From the NCBI GenBank assembly GCA_963667035.1, contig OY762964.1, positions 1,920,001 to 1,984,000 on the forward strand: 64,000 bases of DNA, written 5' to 3'. The stretch's first letter is position 1. Each line of letters starts with the position of its first letter. The position numbers were made by a program. This stretch comes from Candidatus Cloacimonadales bacterium (GTDB taxonomy: Bacteria; Cloacimonadota; Cloacimonadia; Cloacimonadales; JAFGVF01). Below, one piece after another: positions 44,795 to 50,700 of the stretch.

Positions 44795-47700
44795 TTATGC
44801 ATCTTCGACAAACTTTTATTCACCTGTAAACTAATGGGATATAACAGGTTATATTTTATAAAAAACTTTTCTCTTGCCATGTTATGCTGACTTATTTTTT
44901 TAGCAGATTTATTTATTGAGCTTATCACACTCTAGTGTTGGGATTTTTCTATGTTTTTACTACTATTTTTCCGATGAATCCGGTGGTTTTGCGGAACAAT
45001 TCTTGGGTTAATATTAATAATATTGTTCCGAATTTAACTCAGATTATTCAACCACGTTGTGGTTGTTTTGTTTATGGTGTTCATATACCCCGAATTACAT
45101 TCGGGGCTACTCAGATGTAACCACTTCGTGGTTGCAATACATATGGATTAGGAGAGTTGCAATATATGTAGTGCAAGTCCCCCCACTTGCACATAGCTCA
45201 AAGAGCTATTCATAGATAGCGTCTTTTTTAGTTACCAATACTACGCGACTTAGTTTACCATTTATCTTAAAAATCTATTCATCCACTTCTAATCCCAACG
45301 GGATTAAATATGAGTAGCCATGCATGAAATGCATGGTTACTAGCCTAAAAGTGTCGACCCCAAAGTGGGTCGAATATCTACAGTATTATCAAAGCTAGCG
45401 TCTATAAAAGTTTACTAGTACAACGTAAAGCGATTAGACCATGTTCCGATTAAAACTAAGATTATTCAACCACGTTGTGGTTGTTTTATTTATGGTGTCC
45501 CTAAACCCGAATTGCATTCGGGGCTATTCAGAGGTAATCCCATTCGGGATTGCAATACATGTGGTACAGGAGAGTTACAATGTATGTAGTGCAAGTGCCT
45601 CACTTGCACATAGCGATTAGACCATGTTCCGCTTGGAGTCGAACTCCCACCGGTCGTTTGGACTCGAGCTAAAGACTGTAAACATCCTTTTATATATACT
45701 AGTTCCCCCCTTTTTTACATTTTGCATCTTTCATTTTGCTTTTTCTCCTAACTCATATTCCTCTCTCTACTCTCAGCAGTAACAATTGCTTTAAAATCAA
45801 TTTTAACTTATTAATAAATTAGCCACTTCTTGGTAATTAACCCAAGGATTACCCAAGTGTTTCACAAGGGTTTCACAAGTGTCTCACAGGAATTACTGCC
45901 GGGAGATGAGAGAGAAATGAGGTTGATTAGCTTGATTTAATAGCTTTTAGGACAAAAGTTAAAAAGTTGCTTGACCTAAATACAATTTACTTATACTCAA
46001 ACATTAAAAATGAAGAGGAGCATTTTATGATAGAGAAAATGAATAGAGAAACCAAAGTTCGTTTCGGGTTATTCCTCAATTATGCAGAGCATAACATTGT
46101 TATTGTACTGCAATTCATACATGATATATTACTCAAACAGTGGAAGAAGTGTATTGATGTAGATAGTTCAAAACCGTTTGAATCTGACTTGCTACAACGC
46201 TTAGAGTACACTGACTTCCAGCAAATGGAACAAACGCTAAGTCTCATTAACAAACACTTTCCTTTTCTGGGAAAAATGATAGATTCTAACAAATTAGACA
46301 ATCTGAGCTTAGAAGGAAAAGCTAAGCGAGCTTCAGAAAATCTTATCTTATTGCTTAAAGCAGTACATGAGTTGAGAAATCAATGTAGTCATGAGTCGTA
46401 TGATTTAACAGGAGAAGAAACCCTCTTATCAAAAGATGATATAGAAACTATCCGTTACAGACTAAACAGGGTATTTGATGCATCGGTGGATGAGGCAAAG
46501 AGACGATTCTTTGCTCCGGATAAAACTGATGATGAGATAGAAAAAGACCTTAACCATCTAAGAAGATATATTTCCGTAAACAAGAAACGAGAAGATAATC
46601 CTGCTTTCAAATACAGGATTGTTGAAAACGAAGAGCTAACAATTAATGGAATTGCTTATATAACTTCCCTATTTTTAGAAAAAAGAGAAGCATATCTATT
46701 GCTTAACAGTCTTTCCGGGTTTAAAGAAAACAGAACTGATTGGTCCAGGTTAACAAAAGAGTGTTACACAGTTTATAGGATGCAACTTCCTCGTTCACAA
46801 GTAACCTCAAACTATGGGAAAGAGGGTTTGTTACTTGAAATGGTCAGTGAATTAATAAAATGCCCCCATGAGATATTCAAGCATCTTTCTGAGGAAGAGA
46901 GGAATAGGTTTGAGCCAAATCTCCAAAATGATGCTAGTGATTCAGAAGATGAGAATGAAAATGTTCTTAAAAGATACAATGACCGCTTTACTTATCTTGC
47001 CCTTAGATATATTGATGATAATAATCTGTTTGAGAACATTAGGTTCCAGATAGATTTGGGACGGTACTATAAAGAAAGCTACGATAAAACAACAATCAGT
47101 GGTGAGAGAGTGAATCGCAACTTGACCAAAAGGCTCACAACCTTCGGTAGATTGAAAGAAGTAAAGGATATAGTAGTTAAAGATTGGAATGATATAACCA
47201 AATCCACTACCGATAATCCTGTTCCACCATATAGAACAGATACTGTTCCTCACTATCATATAGTTAACAATCAGATTGCATTAAAGATAAATGAAACCGG
47301 TTTACCAAATCTTAGTGAATCAATAAAGCTATCTACACCTGATGCTTGGATTAGTGCTTATGACTTACCCGGGCTTATCTATATTGGTATTATCTCTAAT
47401 GATTTTAAAAGTCTCGAGAATAAAATCATTGGATATATAAAACAAACCTGGAAGAAGTTTGCTTCTGTGGCAGATGGAGAGAAGGACTTAGATGATATAT
47501 CATTACCACTGAAACATACACTCAAAGCTTTAAATAATAACAATGAGATTCTTTTTAGAAAGAAGAAACATGCTCAGATATTTGAAGAAACTGAGAATCT
47601 GCTAAAGAGCTATGACAATAGGGTAGAGAAATTACAAGATAGAAAAACAAAGCCTAAAGATAAAAAGAAGTATCAGATAAGGGCAGGTATTCTTGCGGAT

Positions 47701-50700
47701 TATTTGGCTAAGGATATGGTTAAGATGCAACCCTATTCACCTGAAAAGCAAGGAAAAGACAAGATTACTTCGATTAACTTCCGTTCCTTACAATCTAATC
47801 TTGCTTTCTTTGGGAGTAGCAAAGATAGCCTTAAGGAAGTCTTCCAAAGAGCAGGTCTCATCGCAAGAGTAAATCAGCACCCTTTCCTCTCAAAGATAAA
47901 CCCTTCCGACTACTCGGCAATCGGTCCATTTTATAAGAAATATCTGCTTTCAAAAATTGAGTTCTTGGAGAAATGTCAGAGGAATGATGACTATTCTCAT
48001 GTTACTTTTAAACCGACAAGAAACAAGTATTCCGACTCCAGAGGTTCTATAAAAGAAGTAGCTGAAAGACTGAGTCATTCTCCAGTAAATATCAACTCTG
48101 AGTTCTTTCTTAATCTTCTGAAGCAAGAGCTTCCTTCAATTACTAACGAAAGAATGAATCTGTCTTGGCTGATTAAAAAACATTATAACAAACAAGGATT
48201 CGAGCTTCAAGATATATATTCTAAGCCCAAGAGTTATGAACTTCATAAGAAAGTGGGGAACTATATTTCAAAGAATAAAGGGATAAGAAGACAACTAGAA
48301 GAAATATCTAATTGTAATAACTGTTTTGAAGCTCGCAAACTTGTTAAAGCATTGCCTGAACTTGAGTATAATCCTCCAACTTTAAAGCAAACACTCCTTA
48401 AACTTTGTCAGGACTTCAACAAGAATGAGAAATTAATCCGTTTTAGAGAGTTACAGGATATTGTGATGATTACAATGGTGAATGAGCTGATAAAAGAGAT
48501 TATGACTAATCCGGAAGATGAATTTAAACCTATTCGACTTGAAAGCTTAACTCCGGAGAATACGGATCCTCTTAACAACCCTATTGACACAACTCTTAGC
48601 ATTTGTCTTGAAGAAGTTAAGAAAAAAAAGAAAGATAAGGCTAATTATGTTATCAAACAGTTTGAGATAAAGAATGTTAAGATTAAGAACCTTGGTAAGT
48701 ATAAGCGTTATCAACATGATAAAAGATTAATCGGATTAACCTCTTGGATGGGACAGGAACCCTATAACTTCGATACTGTTATTAAAGAGCTAGAGGACTT
48801 TGATAGATACAAAATAGAGATTGCACTTAAGCTAAACGAGTTTGAAAAGGAGATGTTGAAAAAATACGATGGTTTTAAGGCTACAAAAGGGAATGGGTGC
48901 AGATTCGTAGGATTTAAGGAGTATACTGATAAATATAAGAAAGAGTTTGATAAAGAGAATGCGGAGCTGTTAAAAGATATCCGAAATAGAATTTATCATA
49001 ATGCTTTTCCTAATAAAACAATTCTTAATAATCTGACTATACATAATGAAATAGCTATGGAAATTAAGGATTTTGTGATAGATTTAGTGGATAAAATGCT
49101 CAAAAAACTCAAGGAAAAGGAGGAATAATATGCAAAATGAAGTGAAGTATTCATGGTTTTGCATCTCTAATCCCATGTGTTTTATAGCTTTACAAAAAGC
49201 CTGTTACAGTACCCTCTGTTTTGGAGTCGGAGTGTAACTACTACCTGCATCAAACCACCCAATAAGTGTGTTACAGTACCCTCTGTTTTGGAGTCGGAGT
49301 GTAACACCGTTACTGATGAAGAGGATACAATCGTTGTTACAGTACCCTCTGTTTTGGAGTCGGAGTGTAACGGAACTGATCCCTTTATAAGATACAAAGT
49401 TGGTTACAGTGCCCTCTGTTTTGGAGTCGGAGTGTAACGGCAATATTCAACGAAGCTAGCAACTTCTAAGTTACAGTGCCCTCTGTTTTGGAGTCGGAAT
49501 GTAACTACTTGGACCGCAAGCATCCTTGCTTGCATATTACATTGCTCTCTACTATTGAATCGGATTATAGCATTATCAATATGACACAGACTATTAGCAT
49601 ACTCCGAAGTGGGAGTTTAGGAGGATGCAATTATTGACAGGGATTATCGGACATAGTCACTCTTGATAGGCAGAAATTAATACTATTTTTACTTGACATC
49701 TGACAGAACAAGATTGCATTTATTCGTGCAGGCTCAATTTGAGTGAAAAAGAAAAAAGTAGGTAATTTATTCGATGAGAATCCCATTTAATATTCCATTT
49801 TTAACCGGAAAAGAGAGTGAATACATTCAAGAAGCATTGAATAGTAAAAGGCATTGCGGAAATCACGCTTTTGCTAGAAGAGTAATCTCTCACATGCAAG
49901 CACAACACGGACTTGGAGAGGTCTTCCTCACACCATCCGGAACTGCCGCTTTAGAGATGGGAGCATTGCTAGCCGATATTAAAGAAGGAGACGAGGTGAT
50001 TGTCCCCTCTTATACATTCAGCTCCACAGCTAATGCAATAGTGCTTAGAAATGCTACTCCGGTATTTTGCGAAATAAATCCCAAAACAATGAATATAGAT
50101 GTTGATAGAATTGAGGAGTTGATAACTCCCAGAACTAAGCTGATAGTTCCGATAGATTATGCAGGTATACCTTGCGAGATAGATAGAGTTATGGAAATTG
50201 CCAAGAAACATAATCTTTTGGTGATGCATGACACCGCTCAATCATACGGTTCTTTCTATAAAGGCAAAGCCACCGGTAGTTGGGCTGACTTTGCGACGTT
50301 CAGTTTTCATGAAACAAAGAACATTACTTGCGGTGAAGGCGGAGCTTTAGTTATCAATAATCCTAAATTCGTGCAAAGAGCTCATTTCTTACAAGAGAAA
50401 GGAACAGACAGATCACTGGTATTAAGCGGTGTAAAAAGTAAATATCATTGGGTTGATTTAGGCTCAAGTTTCTTATTGGCAGACATCTTATCCGCTCAGC
50501 TCTATGCTCAAATGGAAGCGGAAAACGCTATCTTTGCAAAAAGAAAGACTGTGTTTGATGCTTACAGTAAACTATATGAACCTTACGAATTGAAAGGCTA
50601 CATCTCTATTCCTCATCTTAACGATGATATGGCTATTAACTACCATGCCTTCTGGGTTATATTTGATAAACCGCAATCCAGAGATAAGTTCATAGAGTTA

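Follow-up and report, generated by a model that had tools for sequence, protein, structure and literature searches.

A type VI-B CRISPR array in a Cloacimonadota genome carries a spacer identical to part of the MuA gene of a resident Mu-like prophage

The cas13b locus and its array

The locus lies in a window of 64,000 nucleotides from the single-contig genome (3,102,113 bp) of a bacterium in the phylum Cloacimonadota, close to Ca. Zophobacter. Coordinates count from the first letter of this window unless they are given as contig positions. The following features were placed:

21849..30042, plus strand: type I-B cas operon with cas8b, cas7, cas5, cas3, cas1 (split) and cas4, 17 kb upstream
46027..49128, plus strand: cas13b, the type VI-B effector, 1033 aa from the ATG at 46027 (open frame from a TTG at 45967)
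49129..49202, plus strand: leader, 74 nt from the cas13b stop codon to the first repeat
49203..49505, plus strand: VI-B CRISPR array, five 36-nt repeats and four spacers
49239..49269, plus strand: spacer 1, 31 nt, leader-proximal, an exact copy of a stretch of the prophage MuA gene
49306-49335, 49372-49402 and 49439-49469, plus strand: spacers 2-4, without identifiable target

The Cas13b protein matched the family model NF038190 (E 5.9e-175; 584 bits, against a cut-off of 150), with an alignment that spans model positions 3-1056 of 1066, and it also matched PbuCas13b (6dtd, 1.8e-57) and PspCas13b (8wf8, 1e-42). Both HEPN motifs are present, RNQCSH at residues 117-122 and RNRIYH at 986-991; among five aligned homologues, the query included, RNxxxH is found in four at HEPN1 and in all at HEPN2. 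A copy of cas13b with about 95% identity is present in the metagenome of another study and, among the differences listed, 19 codons are synonymous and 14 non-synonymous, an excess which suggests that the protein is under constraint. With its intact reading frame, both motifs and this synonymous excess, Cas13b looks functional at the sequence level. Four sequencing runs hold any of this stretch, kept as assembled contigs and not on record as RNA. The short-read contigs break inside the array, and so they give no independent confirmation of spacer 1.

The repeats of the array start at 49203, 49270, 49336, 49403 and 49470, and the spacers measure 31, 30, 31 and 31 nt in order. Repeats 1-3 are identical, repeat 4 has one substitution and repeat 5 has two, which makes the end distal to cas13b the degenerate one; spacer 1, being leader-proximal, is the newest. 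The asymmetric T-rich centre of the repeat lies on the same strand as cas13b. Of 19 related metagenomic cas13b loci, 17 have arrays with this repeat pattern on that strand, 16 of them downstream of cas13b and one upstream. The folding energy of the repeat RNA is -9.7 kcal/mol on the plus strand vs. -5.7 on the minus strand. A promoter scan returned three sites, with 3.3 expected. Judged from its repeats, transcription of the array follows the cas13b strand. A preliminary description of the locus had assigned the effector to the same family with the same two motifs, given the same number of repeats and spacers and inferred this direction, and the present results agree with it on each point.

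The matched gene and its prophage

Spacer 1 is matched exactly (31/31; blastn-short E 1.3e-11) at contig positions 1659761-1659791, outside the window and about 310 kb upstream of the array. By exact search of the whole genome it occurs twice, here and in the array, both times on the plus strand, and spacers 2-4 occur only in the array. These three had no significant match in the genome, in 231 other genomes of the phylum or in INPHARED phages, and their best scores against the prophage were reached by 22, 73 and 841 of 1000 shuffles, respectively. The target ORF (contig 1658601-1660751, minus strand, 716 aa from the first ATG) matches the transposase phrog_310 (2e-88) and the Pfam families Mu-transpos_C, DDE_2 and rve; the protospacer corresponds to codons 321-331 of this MuA gene, inside the DDE core. 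With the array read on the same strand as cas13b, and MuA on the minus strand, the crRNA would be complementary to the MuA mRNA, in which an A precedes the protospacer and GGA follows it. For BzCas13b, a review gives a PFS rule of 5' non-C and 3' NAN or NNA (PMC13288109). The flanks satisfy this rule, which comes from one distant orthologue and which about one third of random sites would pass, and no anti-tag pairing was found between the target flank and the repeat.

A genome-wide scan yielded seven arrays with 33 spacers, more than the four arrays and 25 spacers counted earlier. The perfect self-match, its uniqueness outside the arrays (one of 33 spacers), its antisense orientation and compatible flanks, and the presence of one duplicated Cas9 spacer, all reported in the preliminary description, were recovered. 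None of the 29 spacers in the other arrays (Cas9, I-B-type and RT-Cas1-associated) matches the prophage over its full length, and the I-B spacers gave no match to it; one spacer of Cas9 agrees with this MuA gene at 24 of 30 positions, 964 bp from the protospacer of spacer 1.

The prophage spans about 29 kb, is present in a single copy and has 39 called ORFs, none of them broken, which encode a repressor, MuA, MuB, amidase, TerS, TerL, portal-MuF, protease, tape measure and tail fibre, among others. MuA belongs to a divergent early operon placed behind the S24/CI-type repressor, and the stretch from the repressor gene to this operon contains two 17-nt palindromic predicted operators. An inverted motif is found in three and four copies at the two ends and nowhere else in the genome. 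The three gene blocks of opposite orientation, previously feared to mark a defect, recur in two other genomes (G061:C11 and G012:C13), with 13 of the 39 proteins matching in each and with order and strands the same; by this comparison the layout is native to the prophage lineage. As far as its sequence tells, the element is structurally complete and looks intact in its ends, repressor and operators. It is flanked by a 31-bp direct repeat, where Mu-type transposition is expected to leave a 5-bp duplication, and its presence in one copy only gives no hint of recent activity. Neither IMG/VR nor the 231 other phylum genomes yielded a close relative (>50% identity).

Origin of the locus and of spacer 1

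Cas13b was found in one of 232 genomes of the phylum, that is, in none of the 231 other Cloacimonadota genomes, and the GC content of its region is 0.33-0.35 vs. 0.40-0.43 upstream; by distribution and composition the system is foreign to the phylum. In the Cas13b tree it is sister (support 100/99) to five metagenomic loci of cas13b-csx28-array architecture, the identity to the nearest relatives in that comparison being only 34-36%. The ORFs between cas13b and the array of relatives proved to be Csx28 in all seven tested, and csx28 is carried by the sister clade and the outgroups, including all closest relatives. Here, neither a family search nor a protein search of the genome returned Csx28, and the 74 nt separating cas13b from the array leave no room for it. 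The locus is a horizontally acquired type VI-B system without csx28. It shares its repeat type and array position with the type VI-B2 loci (Smargon 2017; VanderWal et al.; cited in PMC13288109), which, in contrast, carry csx28 between cas13b and the array. Csx28 is described as required for robust Cas13b defence. Because it is present in all closest relatives and absent here, the response of this Cas13b may be attenuated, and it is probably milder than in related systems.

Type II-C cas9, cas1 and cas2 are intact in the genome, and several features tie their array to that of Cas13b. In both, repeats measure 36 nt and spacers 30-31 nt; in leader-relative orientation, the VI-B repeat agrees with the reverse-complemented II-C repeat at 21 of 36 positions, a value reached by 2 of 100,000 shuffles; and the last seven nucleotides of the VI-B leader, AAAGCCT, are identical to the cas2-proximal leader-repeat junction of the II-C array. 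When reverse-complemented, the flank of the VI-B protospacer on the leader side has the 5-mer GATGT at offset 2-6 in common with the flank of a II-C-like protospacer, a 5-mer present at 71 of the 57,942 positions in the prophage; this PAM argument is made from two sites, and the match at one of them is degenerate. The resident Cas9-Cas1-Cas2 would have captured spacer 1 and, acting in trans, added it to the VI-B array at the leader; this loading by the co-resident II-C Cas1-Cas2 is probable and fairly well supported. The type I-B operon, in which an in-frame TAA divides cas1 into 28118-28489 and 28514-29149, is not a likely source of adaptation. A transposable phage needs MuA expression to integrate, and for this reason spacer 1 was most likely taken from the already resident prophage rather than before infection.

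Such a route in trans has been demonstrated experimentally in two systems. In Flavobacterium columnare, which belongs to another phylum, Hoikkala and others described a VI-B system without cas1 and cas2 that is served by II-C, with the spacer's PAM end facing the leader and transcription from leader to array, as here (Hoikkala et al., 2021; PMC8092290). By that account, however, none of the seven pre-existing VI-B spacers of strain B185 targets self mRNA and none is perfect, whereas the newest spacer here is a perfect self-match. In Listeria seeligeri (10.1101/2024.10.25.620265), type VI, II-C and I-B systems are co-resident as they are here, the VI-A and II-C repeats (36 bp; spacers of about 30 bp) are 54% identical compared with 58% in the Cloacimonadota genome, the leaders are similar beside the array, the PAM on the type VI protospacer is the reverse complement, and spacers derive from a resident prophage. 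The system differs in being VI-A (Cas13a) from Firmicutes and in that its spacers arose under Cas1-2 over-expression with priming by a I-B spacer, while here the array is natural, none of the I-B spacers has a match in the prophage and cas1 of the I-B operon is broken.

Coexistence of spacer and prophage

Cas13b senses RNA only, and a lysogen in which MuA is silent under the S24/CI-type repressor would tolerate the perfect self-match. Once the repressor is inactivated, the MuA mRNA would be among the first transcripts; pairing with the crRNA would activate Cas13b, which would cut bystander RNA along with the transposase message, so that replicative transposition would be blocked and induction aborted or stalled. 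Silence until induction fits every sequence feature of the locus, and a horizontally acquired VI-B system with a II-C-loaded spacer tolerated until induction is the best explanation, to which we give an even chance. The preliminary description had proposed such a tripwire. Its sequence prerequisites hold (antisense crRNA, PFS, intact Cas13b, repressed early operon, conserved layout), but its novelty does not: the idea was stated for type VI by Wimmer and Beisel (2020; PMC6990116) and in a 2021 preprint by Vialetto and others (10.1101/2021.11.23.469693), and it appears almost verbatim in the Listeria preprint, whose authors propose a system that stays off until phage reactivation (10.1101/2024.10.25.620265). 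A parallel is also offered by type III immunity in Staphylococcus (2014; cited in PMC6990116 and PMC5754349), where a spacer matches a lytic gene of a prophage and the need for target transcription lets the lysogen be tolerated until induction. That system cleaves DNA co-transcriptionally as well as RNA and was engineered in the laboratory, while Cas13b acts on RNA only and the present case is a natural genome known from sequence.

Other readings have to be weighed. It is rather unlikely, yet worth consideration, that loss of csx28 or poor expression leaves Cas13b silent or too weak to have an effect, and that spacer 1 is a harmless by-product record with no effect on induction. The missing Csx28, the foreign, low-GC character of the system and the short array of four spacers point this way, as does the report that VI-B arrays loaded in trans receive many non-functional and self-derived spacers (Hoikkala et al., 2021; PMC8092290). 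However, the ORF and both HEPN motifs are intact, the synonymous excess suggests constraint, repeats 1-3 are identical, and loci without an accessory gene also occur among relatives (L036, L037 and L039, for example). Little probability is given to the crRNA serving as a regulatory rather than immune device, which would trim leaky MuA transcripts below the level of dormancy and so stabilise lysogeny. Vialetto and others found that below an expression threshold targets are tolerated and silenced without dormancy, which would account for a tolerated perfect self-match, and they name lysogenic phages as low-expression invaders (10.1101/2021.11.23.469693); the target is part of MuA's essential catalytic core, and without Csx28 a non-lethal output would be favoured. 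Yet that work was done in E. coli with LshCas13a, its targets being chromosomal and plasmid-borne, and involved neither Cas13b nor a prophage; leaky early transcription of MuA is without support, and the same sequence evidence fits silence until induction equally, so that RNA data are needed to tell the two apart.

An inhibitor encoded by the prophage, which would allow coexistence with a fully active matching crRNA and normal induction, appears improbable. Self-targeting genomes are enriched for anti-CRISPRs (PMC7708048), and mobile elements can neutralise Cas13b, as exemplified by AcrVIB1, which coexists with Cas13b in one Riemerella genome; it is the only Cas13b inhibitor known (10.1101/2024.11.17.623997), so that further ones are plausible. 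An anti-Cas13b protein was therefore not "as yet unknown", as previously worded, although the earlier statement that no candidate was identified stands. About 20 prophage ORFs are without any family hit, including an acidic 62-aa protein encoded by the first gene of the early operon, a very acidic 316-aa protein encoded just upstream of MuA and a membrane-anchored zinc-ribbon protein of 222 aa co-oriented with the repressor. Against this, nothing in the prophage matched the anti-CRISPR categories of PHROGs or Pfam (42 and 48 proteins scanned; 12 rescanned at E<=1), no PF05521-type protein was found in the genome (a weak test, based only on the molecule name in PDB 9fcv), and with an RNA-only effector a lysogen needs no inhibitor to survive while the target is repressed. 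It is equally doubtful that the prophage is defective or never induced, in which case the target RNA would never be made and the match would be without consequence: the single copy, the atypical direct repeat and the lack of a relative proving the lineage active speak for it, but its ORFs are unbroken, all modules and the inverted end motif are present, repressor and operators are intact and two other genomes have the same layout.

The locus is a real and clean natural case of an arrangement of an already known kind. It provides a natural example of what was predicted in print and had hitherto been made only in the laboratory.

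Spacer 1 and its target

The type VI-B effector gene lies on the single 3,102,113-bp contig of the genome.

Window 45967-49128, plus strand: open frame of cas13b, with its ATG at 46027 and a product of 1033 aa (NF038190, 5.9e-175)

The gene had been described at the outset as a Cas13b with both HEPN motifs, and this is borne out by a match of 584 bits to the NF038190 equivalog (cut-off 150; model positions 3-1056 of 1066) and by the RxxxxH motifs found near both termini, RNQCSH at residues 117-122 and RNRIYH at 986-991. These motifs align to those of PbuCas13b and are conserved in 4/5 and 5/5 of the aligned homologues, respectively, while the PDB matches of the protein include PbuCas13b (1.8e-57) and PspCas13b (1e-42). 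The reported lack of adaptation genes beside cas13b also holds: neither cas1 nor cas2 is present in the locus, whose neighbours are gdhA and a gene for a wecE-like aminotransferase. The cas13b region has a GC content of 0.33-0.35, in comparison with 0.40-0.43 upstream. Rfam returned no match at E<=1 in window 45000-50500, and a scan for promoters and terminators gave a result no better than shuffled sequences. Just upstream of cas13b, at window 45024-45634, two copies of an element of about 180 nt were noted, 84-91% identical and 418 nt apart; in metagenome contigs its depth is 5-10 times that of cas13b and it is found in many alternative joints, so the element is taken to be MITE-like and present in many copies in the genome or the community.

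The array begins 74 nt past the cas13b stop codon and comprises five 36-nt repeats and four spacers (31, 30, 31 and 31 nt). Spacer 1 (window 49239-49269) is identical to contig 1659761-1659791, both read on the plus strand, and the sequence has two occurrences in the genome, the array and the target. Chance does not explain such a match of a 31-mer in 3.1 Mb (blastn-short E 1.3e-11). The target was correctly named as a Mu-type transposase, a minus-strand ORF at 1658601-1660751 (phrog_310 2e-88, Mu-transpos_C, DDE_2, rve), hereafter MuA, in which the protospacer covers codons 321-331, within the catalytic core. The crRNA would thus be antisense to the transcript of a lytic-cycle gene carried by the resident prophage, as the preliminary description held, a relation that depends on transcription of the array on the cas13b strand.

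Several observations bear on this strand and on the polarity of the array. Among 19 related metagenomic cas13b loci, 17 carry a Cas13b-type array, 16 of them downstream of cas13b and one upstream; since two pairs are duplicates, about 15 of the 17 are independent. Read on the cas13b strand, the repeats of these relatives have a common asymmetry, with a GTTG or GCTG start, a T-rich centre and an ACAAC-like end, and the present repeat is alike, as judged by eye from the repeats of the 17 loci. The repeat RNA folds at -9.7 kcal/mol on the plus strand versus -5.7 for its complement. Degenerate repeats usually mark the leader-distal end of an array, and the two cas13b-distal repeats have 1 and 2 substitutions. 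In leader-to-repeat sense, the same 7 nt, AAAGCCT, abut the first VI-B repeat and the cas2-proximal repeat of the II-C array. Because these four lines on strand and polarity agree, spacer 1 is placed as leader-proximal and the most recent acquisition.

In Cas13b crRNAs the spacer lies 5' of the repeat, and the flanks described for BzCas13b are 5' non-C and 3' NAN/NNA (PMC13288109). The mRNA context A[protospacer]GGA agrees with this rule, as first reported, and there is no pairing between the 5' flank and the first bases of the repeat. The fit is permissive rather than supportive, since about one third of random sites would pass.

Exact whole-genome occurrences of spacers 2-4 are confined to the array, and their weak matches to the prophage are not significant. 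Protospacers of the VI-B array were found neither in 231 other genomes of the phylum nor among INPHARED phages, where a match to a Listeria phage (28 nt, E 0.08) was rejected as chance. The VI-B repeat itself is absent from the same 231 genomes, and its exact sequence had no occurrence in JGI metagenome contigs. Metagenome contigs end within the array, and those of X4, a run from another study, do not reach it. Among the runs listed as containing the locus, no RNA run was found.

The Mu-like prophage

The element, put at roughly 30 kb in the preliminary description, measures 28,975 bp (contig 1635449-1664423) and is bordered by a host ArsR gene on the left and an ABC transporter gene on the right. 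A repressor (HTH/S24) stands divergent to an early operon in which MuA and a MuB-like AAA+ protein (phrog_296, AAA_22) are accompanied by five ORFs that are small or acidic, and the intergenic region between them holds a 17-nt palindrome twice. The plus-strand block encodes gp36-like and G-like proteins, TerS, TerL and a portal-MuF-PBECR2 fusion, while the minus-strand block encodes a protease, a capsid-like protein, the tape measure and a tail fibre; an amidase is also encoded. The head module is of Mu type (Portal_Mu 6e-50, Phage_Mu_F 5e-19, Phage_Mu_Gp36 2e-9, weak Mu-like_Pro, Phage_tail_S). The fused portal (contig 1649889-1652618) is a 909-aa ORF in which a Mu F domain is joined to a C-terminal PBECR2 (Barnase/EndoU/colicin-like) nuclease domain.

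The orientation of the modules in three blocks had been regarded as a possible defect. This concern is set aside by the related prophages of two other genomes, G061:C11 and G012:C13, in which the layout is conserved: each has homologues for 13/39 of the prophage proteins, with order and strand pattern kept. Of the 39 called ORFs, none was seen to be broken. A 12-nt end motif is present in three copies at the left end (plus strand) and four at the right (minus strand), hence inverted, and is absent elsewhere in the genome; the ends of the G061 prophage have an analogous repeat pattern.

Mu-type transposition should leave a 5-bp target-site duplication. Instead, an exact 31-bp direct repeat (contig 1635418-1635448 and 1664424-1664454) abuts both ends, with two small palindromes inside and only these two copies in the genome. 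Long flanking direct repeats as a trait of the prophage family were considered and discarded, as the G061 prophage lacks them. An empty integration site was not found in the same-genus genome G001, where the left flank is conserved and the right flank is non-adjacent.

This genome has one copy of MuA. Homologues are present in 79/201 genomes of the phylum at E<=1e-20, none above 39% identity, and no relative was found in IMG/VR. Among the small prophage ORFs, searches for anti-CRISPR or other known families gave no match, even at E<=1, and PF05521 has no match in the genome. About 20 ORFs of the prophage have no annotation; they include acidic early proteins of 62 and 316 aa and further proteins of 63 and 81 aa. 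Directly after the repressor, and co-oriented with it, lies a gene (contig 1663526-1664194) whose 222-aa product combines a membrane helix at the N-terminus with a zinc ribbon (CxxC...CxxC) and matches no family; this protein is probably expressed in the lysogen.

Provenance of spacer 1 and of the VI-B module

The genome had been credited with four arrays and 25 spacers, a count that the rescan raises to seven arrays and 33 spacers, and it has three cas1 genes. The type II cas1 is intact and stands beside cas2 and a cas9 of 1056 aa (TIGR01865, 1e-187), with a 13-repeat array adjoining. In the type I-B operon (window 21849-30042), where a cas2 was not recognised, an in-frame TAA divides cas1 (window 28118-29149) into two ORFs, of 123 and 211 aa. 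The third cas1 domain (contig 386030-386836) belongs to an open frame of 865 aa that may encode an RT-Cas1 fusion and stands beside two arrays (contig 384972-385232 and 397956-398420) with another family of 36-nt repeats. Small arrays of the I-B-matching repeat family also occur elsewhere on the chromosome (contig 663177-663437, 758788-759046 and 1785064-1785249, with a lone repeat at 1863077); the three dispersed mini-arrays each precede the same conserved flank of about 90 nt, as though each had been copied together with a leader or trailer.

It is the II-C module to which the VI-B array bears resemblance. The VI-B repeat agrees with the II-C repeat's reverse complement at 21/36 positions, a value reached by 2/100,000 shuffles, and has only 16-17 identities with either of the remaining two repeat families. 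Repeats of 36 nt, spacers of 30-31 nt and the leader-repeat junction AAAGCCT are common to the VI-B and II-C arrays. Several features expected of loading in trans are present: an intact co-resident II-C adaptation module, like repeat and spacer lengths, and similarity of repeat and leader-proximal sequence. Loading of type VI arrays in trans by II-C Cas1-Cas2 has been demonstrated for the VI-B system of F. columnare (PMC8092290) and the VI-A system of L. seeligeri (10.1101/2024.10.25.620265), and the array anatomy here is the same as in the accounts of these two cases. The repeats of the Listeria VI-A/II-C pair are described as 54% identical, with leaders alike near the array and the PAM reverse-complemented on the type VI protospacer (10.1101/2024.10.25.620265). 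II-C repeat-family arrays also occur in 23/231 other genomes of the phylum, including two of the same genus.

A second link between the II-C system and the prophage comes from a spacer at contig 1033380-1033409, which agrees with prophage positions 1658768-1658797 at 24/30 nt (0/2000 shuffles), the sole such site in the genome. This site too lies within MuA, and 964 bp separate it from the protospacer of spacer 1. Of the six differences, one is synonymous and five are non-synonymous, in the variable C-terminal tail of MuA, and three fall within the PAM-proximal 10 nt. They look like those of a related phage rather than escape mutations, and the resident prophage probably escapes this spacer, which would be a memory of such a phage. 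When the 10 nt that flank this site on its PAM side are set against the reverse-complemented leader-facing flank of the VI-B protospacer, both have GATGT at offset 2-6, a motif found at 71/57,942 prophage positions (chance about 0.006, allowing any of six windows). As the comparison involves two sites only, and the II-C-like one is itself just a 24/30 match, the shared motif is suggestive, not proof. II-C array spacers gave only repeat-driven matches in 231 genomes and no further protospacer, so that no II-C PAM could be derived. The II-C Cas1-Cas2 probably inserted spacer 1 into the VI-B array.

The other arrays (Cas9, I-B-type and RT-Cas1-associated) hold 29 spacers, none of which matches the prophage in full, and the confinement of the full match to the RNA-targeting array fits a logic of RNA-only sensing. 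The spacers of the A and B arrays all scored within their shuffles against the prophage. Priming by type I-B was considered and rejected: one I-B-type spacer has an exact 15-nt match in the TerL gene of the prophage, but on extension only 19/36 positions agree, and the match is ascribed to chance.

The timing of acquisition can also be argued. Integration of transposable phages requires MuA. Because MuA must be made for integration, lysogenisation should have failed had an active spacer already been in place, and for this reason spacer 1 would have been taken from the resident prophage. Such uptake has been seen experimentally in Listeria lysogens.

The RpoB of the host shares 90% identity with that of a Ca. 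Zophobacter franzmannii MAG and 70-73% with those of other Cloacimonadota. Cas13b is found in 1/232 species-representative genomes of the phylum, a search of species-representative genomes for related cas13b loci gave none, and a protein search gave 0/40 in nearer relatives; no report of Cas13b in Cloacimonadota was found in the papers searched. The closest proteins are metagenomic, at 33-36% identity. A cas13b copy about 95% identical occurs in another study's run, with 19 synonymous versus 14 non-synonymous codon changes counted on a partial sample of 35/154 differences, an excess that suggests constraint. In X4, contigs corresponding to window 46074-48523 carry cas13b fragments 92-96% identical, so that a sister strain or species with this Cas13b exists elsewhere.

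Csx28 is described as a membrane effector downstream of Cas13b that is consistently encoded in VI-B2 loci; VI-B1 accessory genes vary (PMC13288109). In the five closest metagenomic loci (L029-L033) an ORF of 185-195 aa stands between cas13b and the array, as in the relatives L047 and L042/L043, and 7/7 such ORFs tested matched the Csx28 equivalog NF040556 (E 1e-19 to 1e-37). In a tree built with IQ-TREE from 15 rows, 13 of them different, the present Cas13b sits on a long branch and is sister to the five Csx28-bearing loci with support 100/99, and the Csx28-bearing L047 lies further out. Searches of this genome with NF040556 and with a relative's protein gave no match to Csx28, and the gap between cas13b and array is 74 nt. 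Loss is the parsimonious account of this absence. Nor was the VI-B1 gene csx27 recognised in the flanks of the locus, where no ORF of at least 25 aa has a family match, although no search with a Csx27 model was made.

Proposed tolerance of the prophage and its implications

The interpretation given in the preliminary description, transcription-dependent tolerance, is the best-supported, although unproven, reading of the locus. The VI-B array would be expressed, MuA would be silent during lysogeny, as the repressor-operator anatomy suggests, and induction would trigger Cas13b on the MuA mRNA. The first rival is that Cas13b is silent or too weak to act. The response of a system lacking Csx28 may be milder, a possibility that bears on tolerance and on this rival alike.

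A more elaborate scenario, which we consider improbable, is that Cas13b has been converted from abortive infection to a non-lethal 'prophage lock' through Csx28 loss, II-C feeding, priming and MuA cutting. A foreign VI-B module, having lost its membrane-pore partner Csx28, would be fed by the host II-C Cas1-Cas2-Cas9; the old mismatched Cas9 spacer 964 bp away would steer acquisition to the transposase gene, that is, II-C to VI-B cross-type priming. At induction the crRNA would cut the Mu transposase message, replicative transposition would stop before chromosome damage, and induction would be reversible, with the other genes of the prophage retained.

The simpler tolerance reading has precedents. 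The notion that Cas13 passes over a prophage while it is repressed and acts once it reactivates was stated by Wimmer & Beisel 2020 (PMC6990116), is implied by work on expression thresholds (10.1101/2021.11.23.469693) and is spelled out in the Discussion of a 2024 Listeria preprint (10.1101/2024.10.25.620265). Conditional prophage tolerance is reported to have been demonstrated for type III-A alone, and in type VI the demonstrations are confined to spacers generated in the laboratory. In the strain of Hoikkala and others, 0/7 pre-existing VI-B spacers target self mRNA (PMC8092290), whereas spacer 1 does so here. In a search that did not extend to subscription-only papers or supplements, no title or abstract was found to describe a resident prophage with a lytic gene perfectly matched by a natural Cas13b spacer. 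The observation is real and clean, and its interpretation is already anticipated in print. Four points are new: evidence for acquisition through the II-C system, a degenerate Cas9 spacer as a second match within MuA, the native layout of the prophage, and the apparent loss of Csx28 in a phylum otherwise without Cas13b.

The locus is a clean natural Cas13b case for the predicted prophage tolerance, and one closed chromosome holds all that reconstitution calls for: the effector, the array, MuA with its native flanks and the repressor-operator switch. With AcrVIB1 described as the sole known Cas13b inhibitor (10.1101/2024.11.17.623997), the unannotated ORFs of the prophage form a full set to screen for a second one. 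The signatures of cross-adaptation from II-C to type VI now reach a third phylum, and the pairing of self-targeting with Csx28 loss suggests a link between loss of an accessory gene and tolerance of a self-match.
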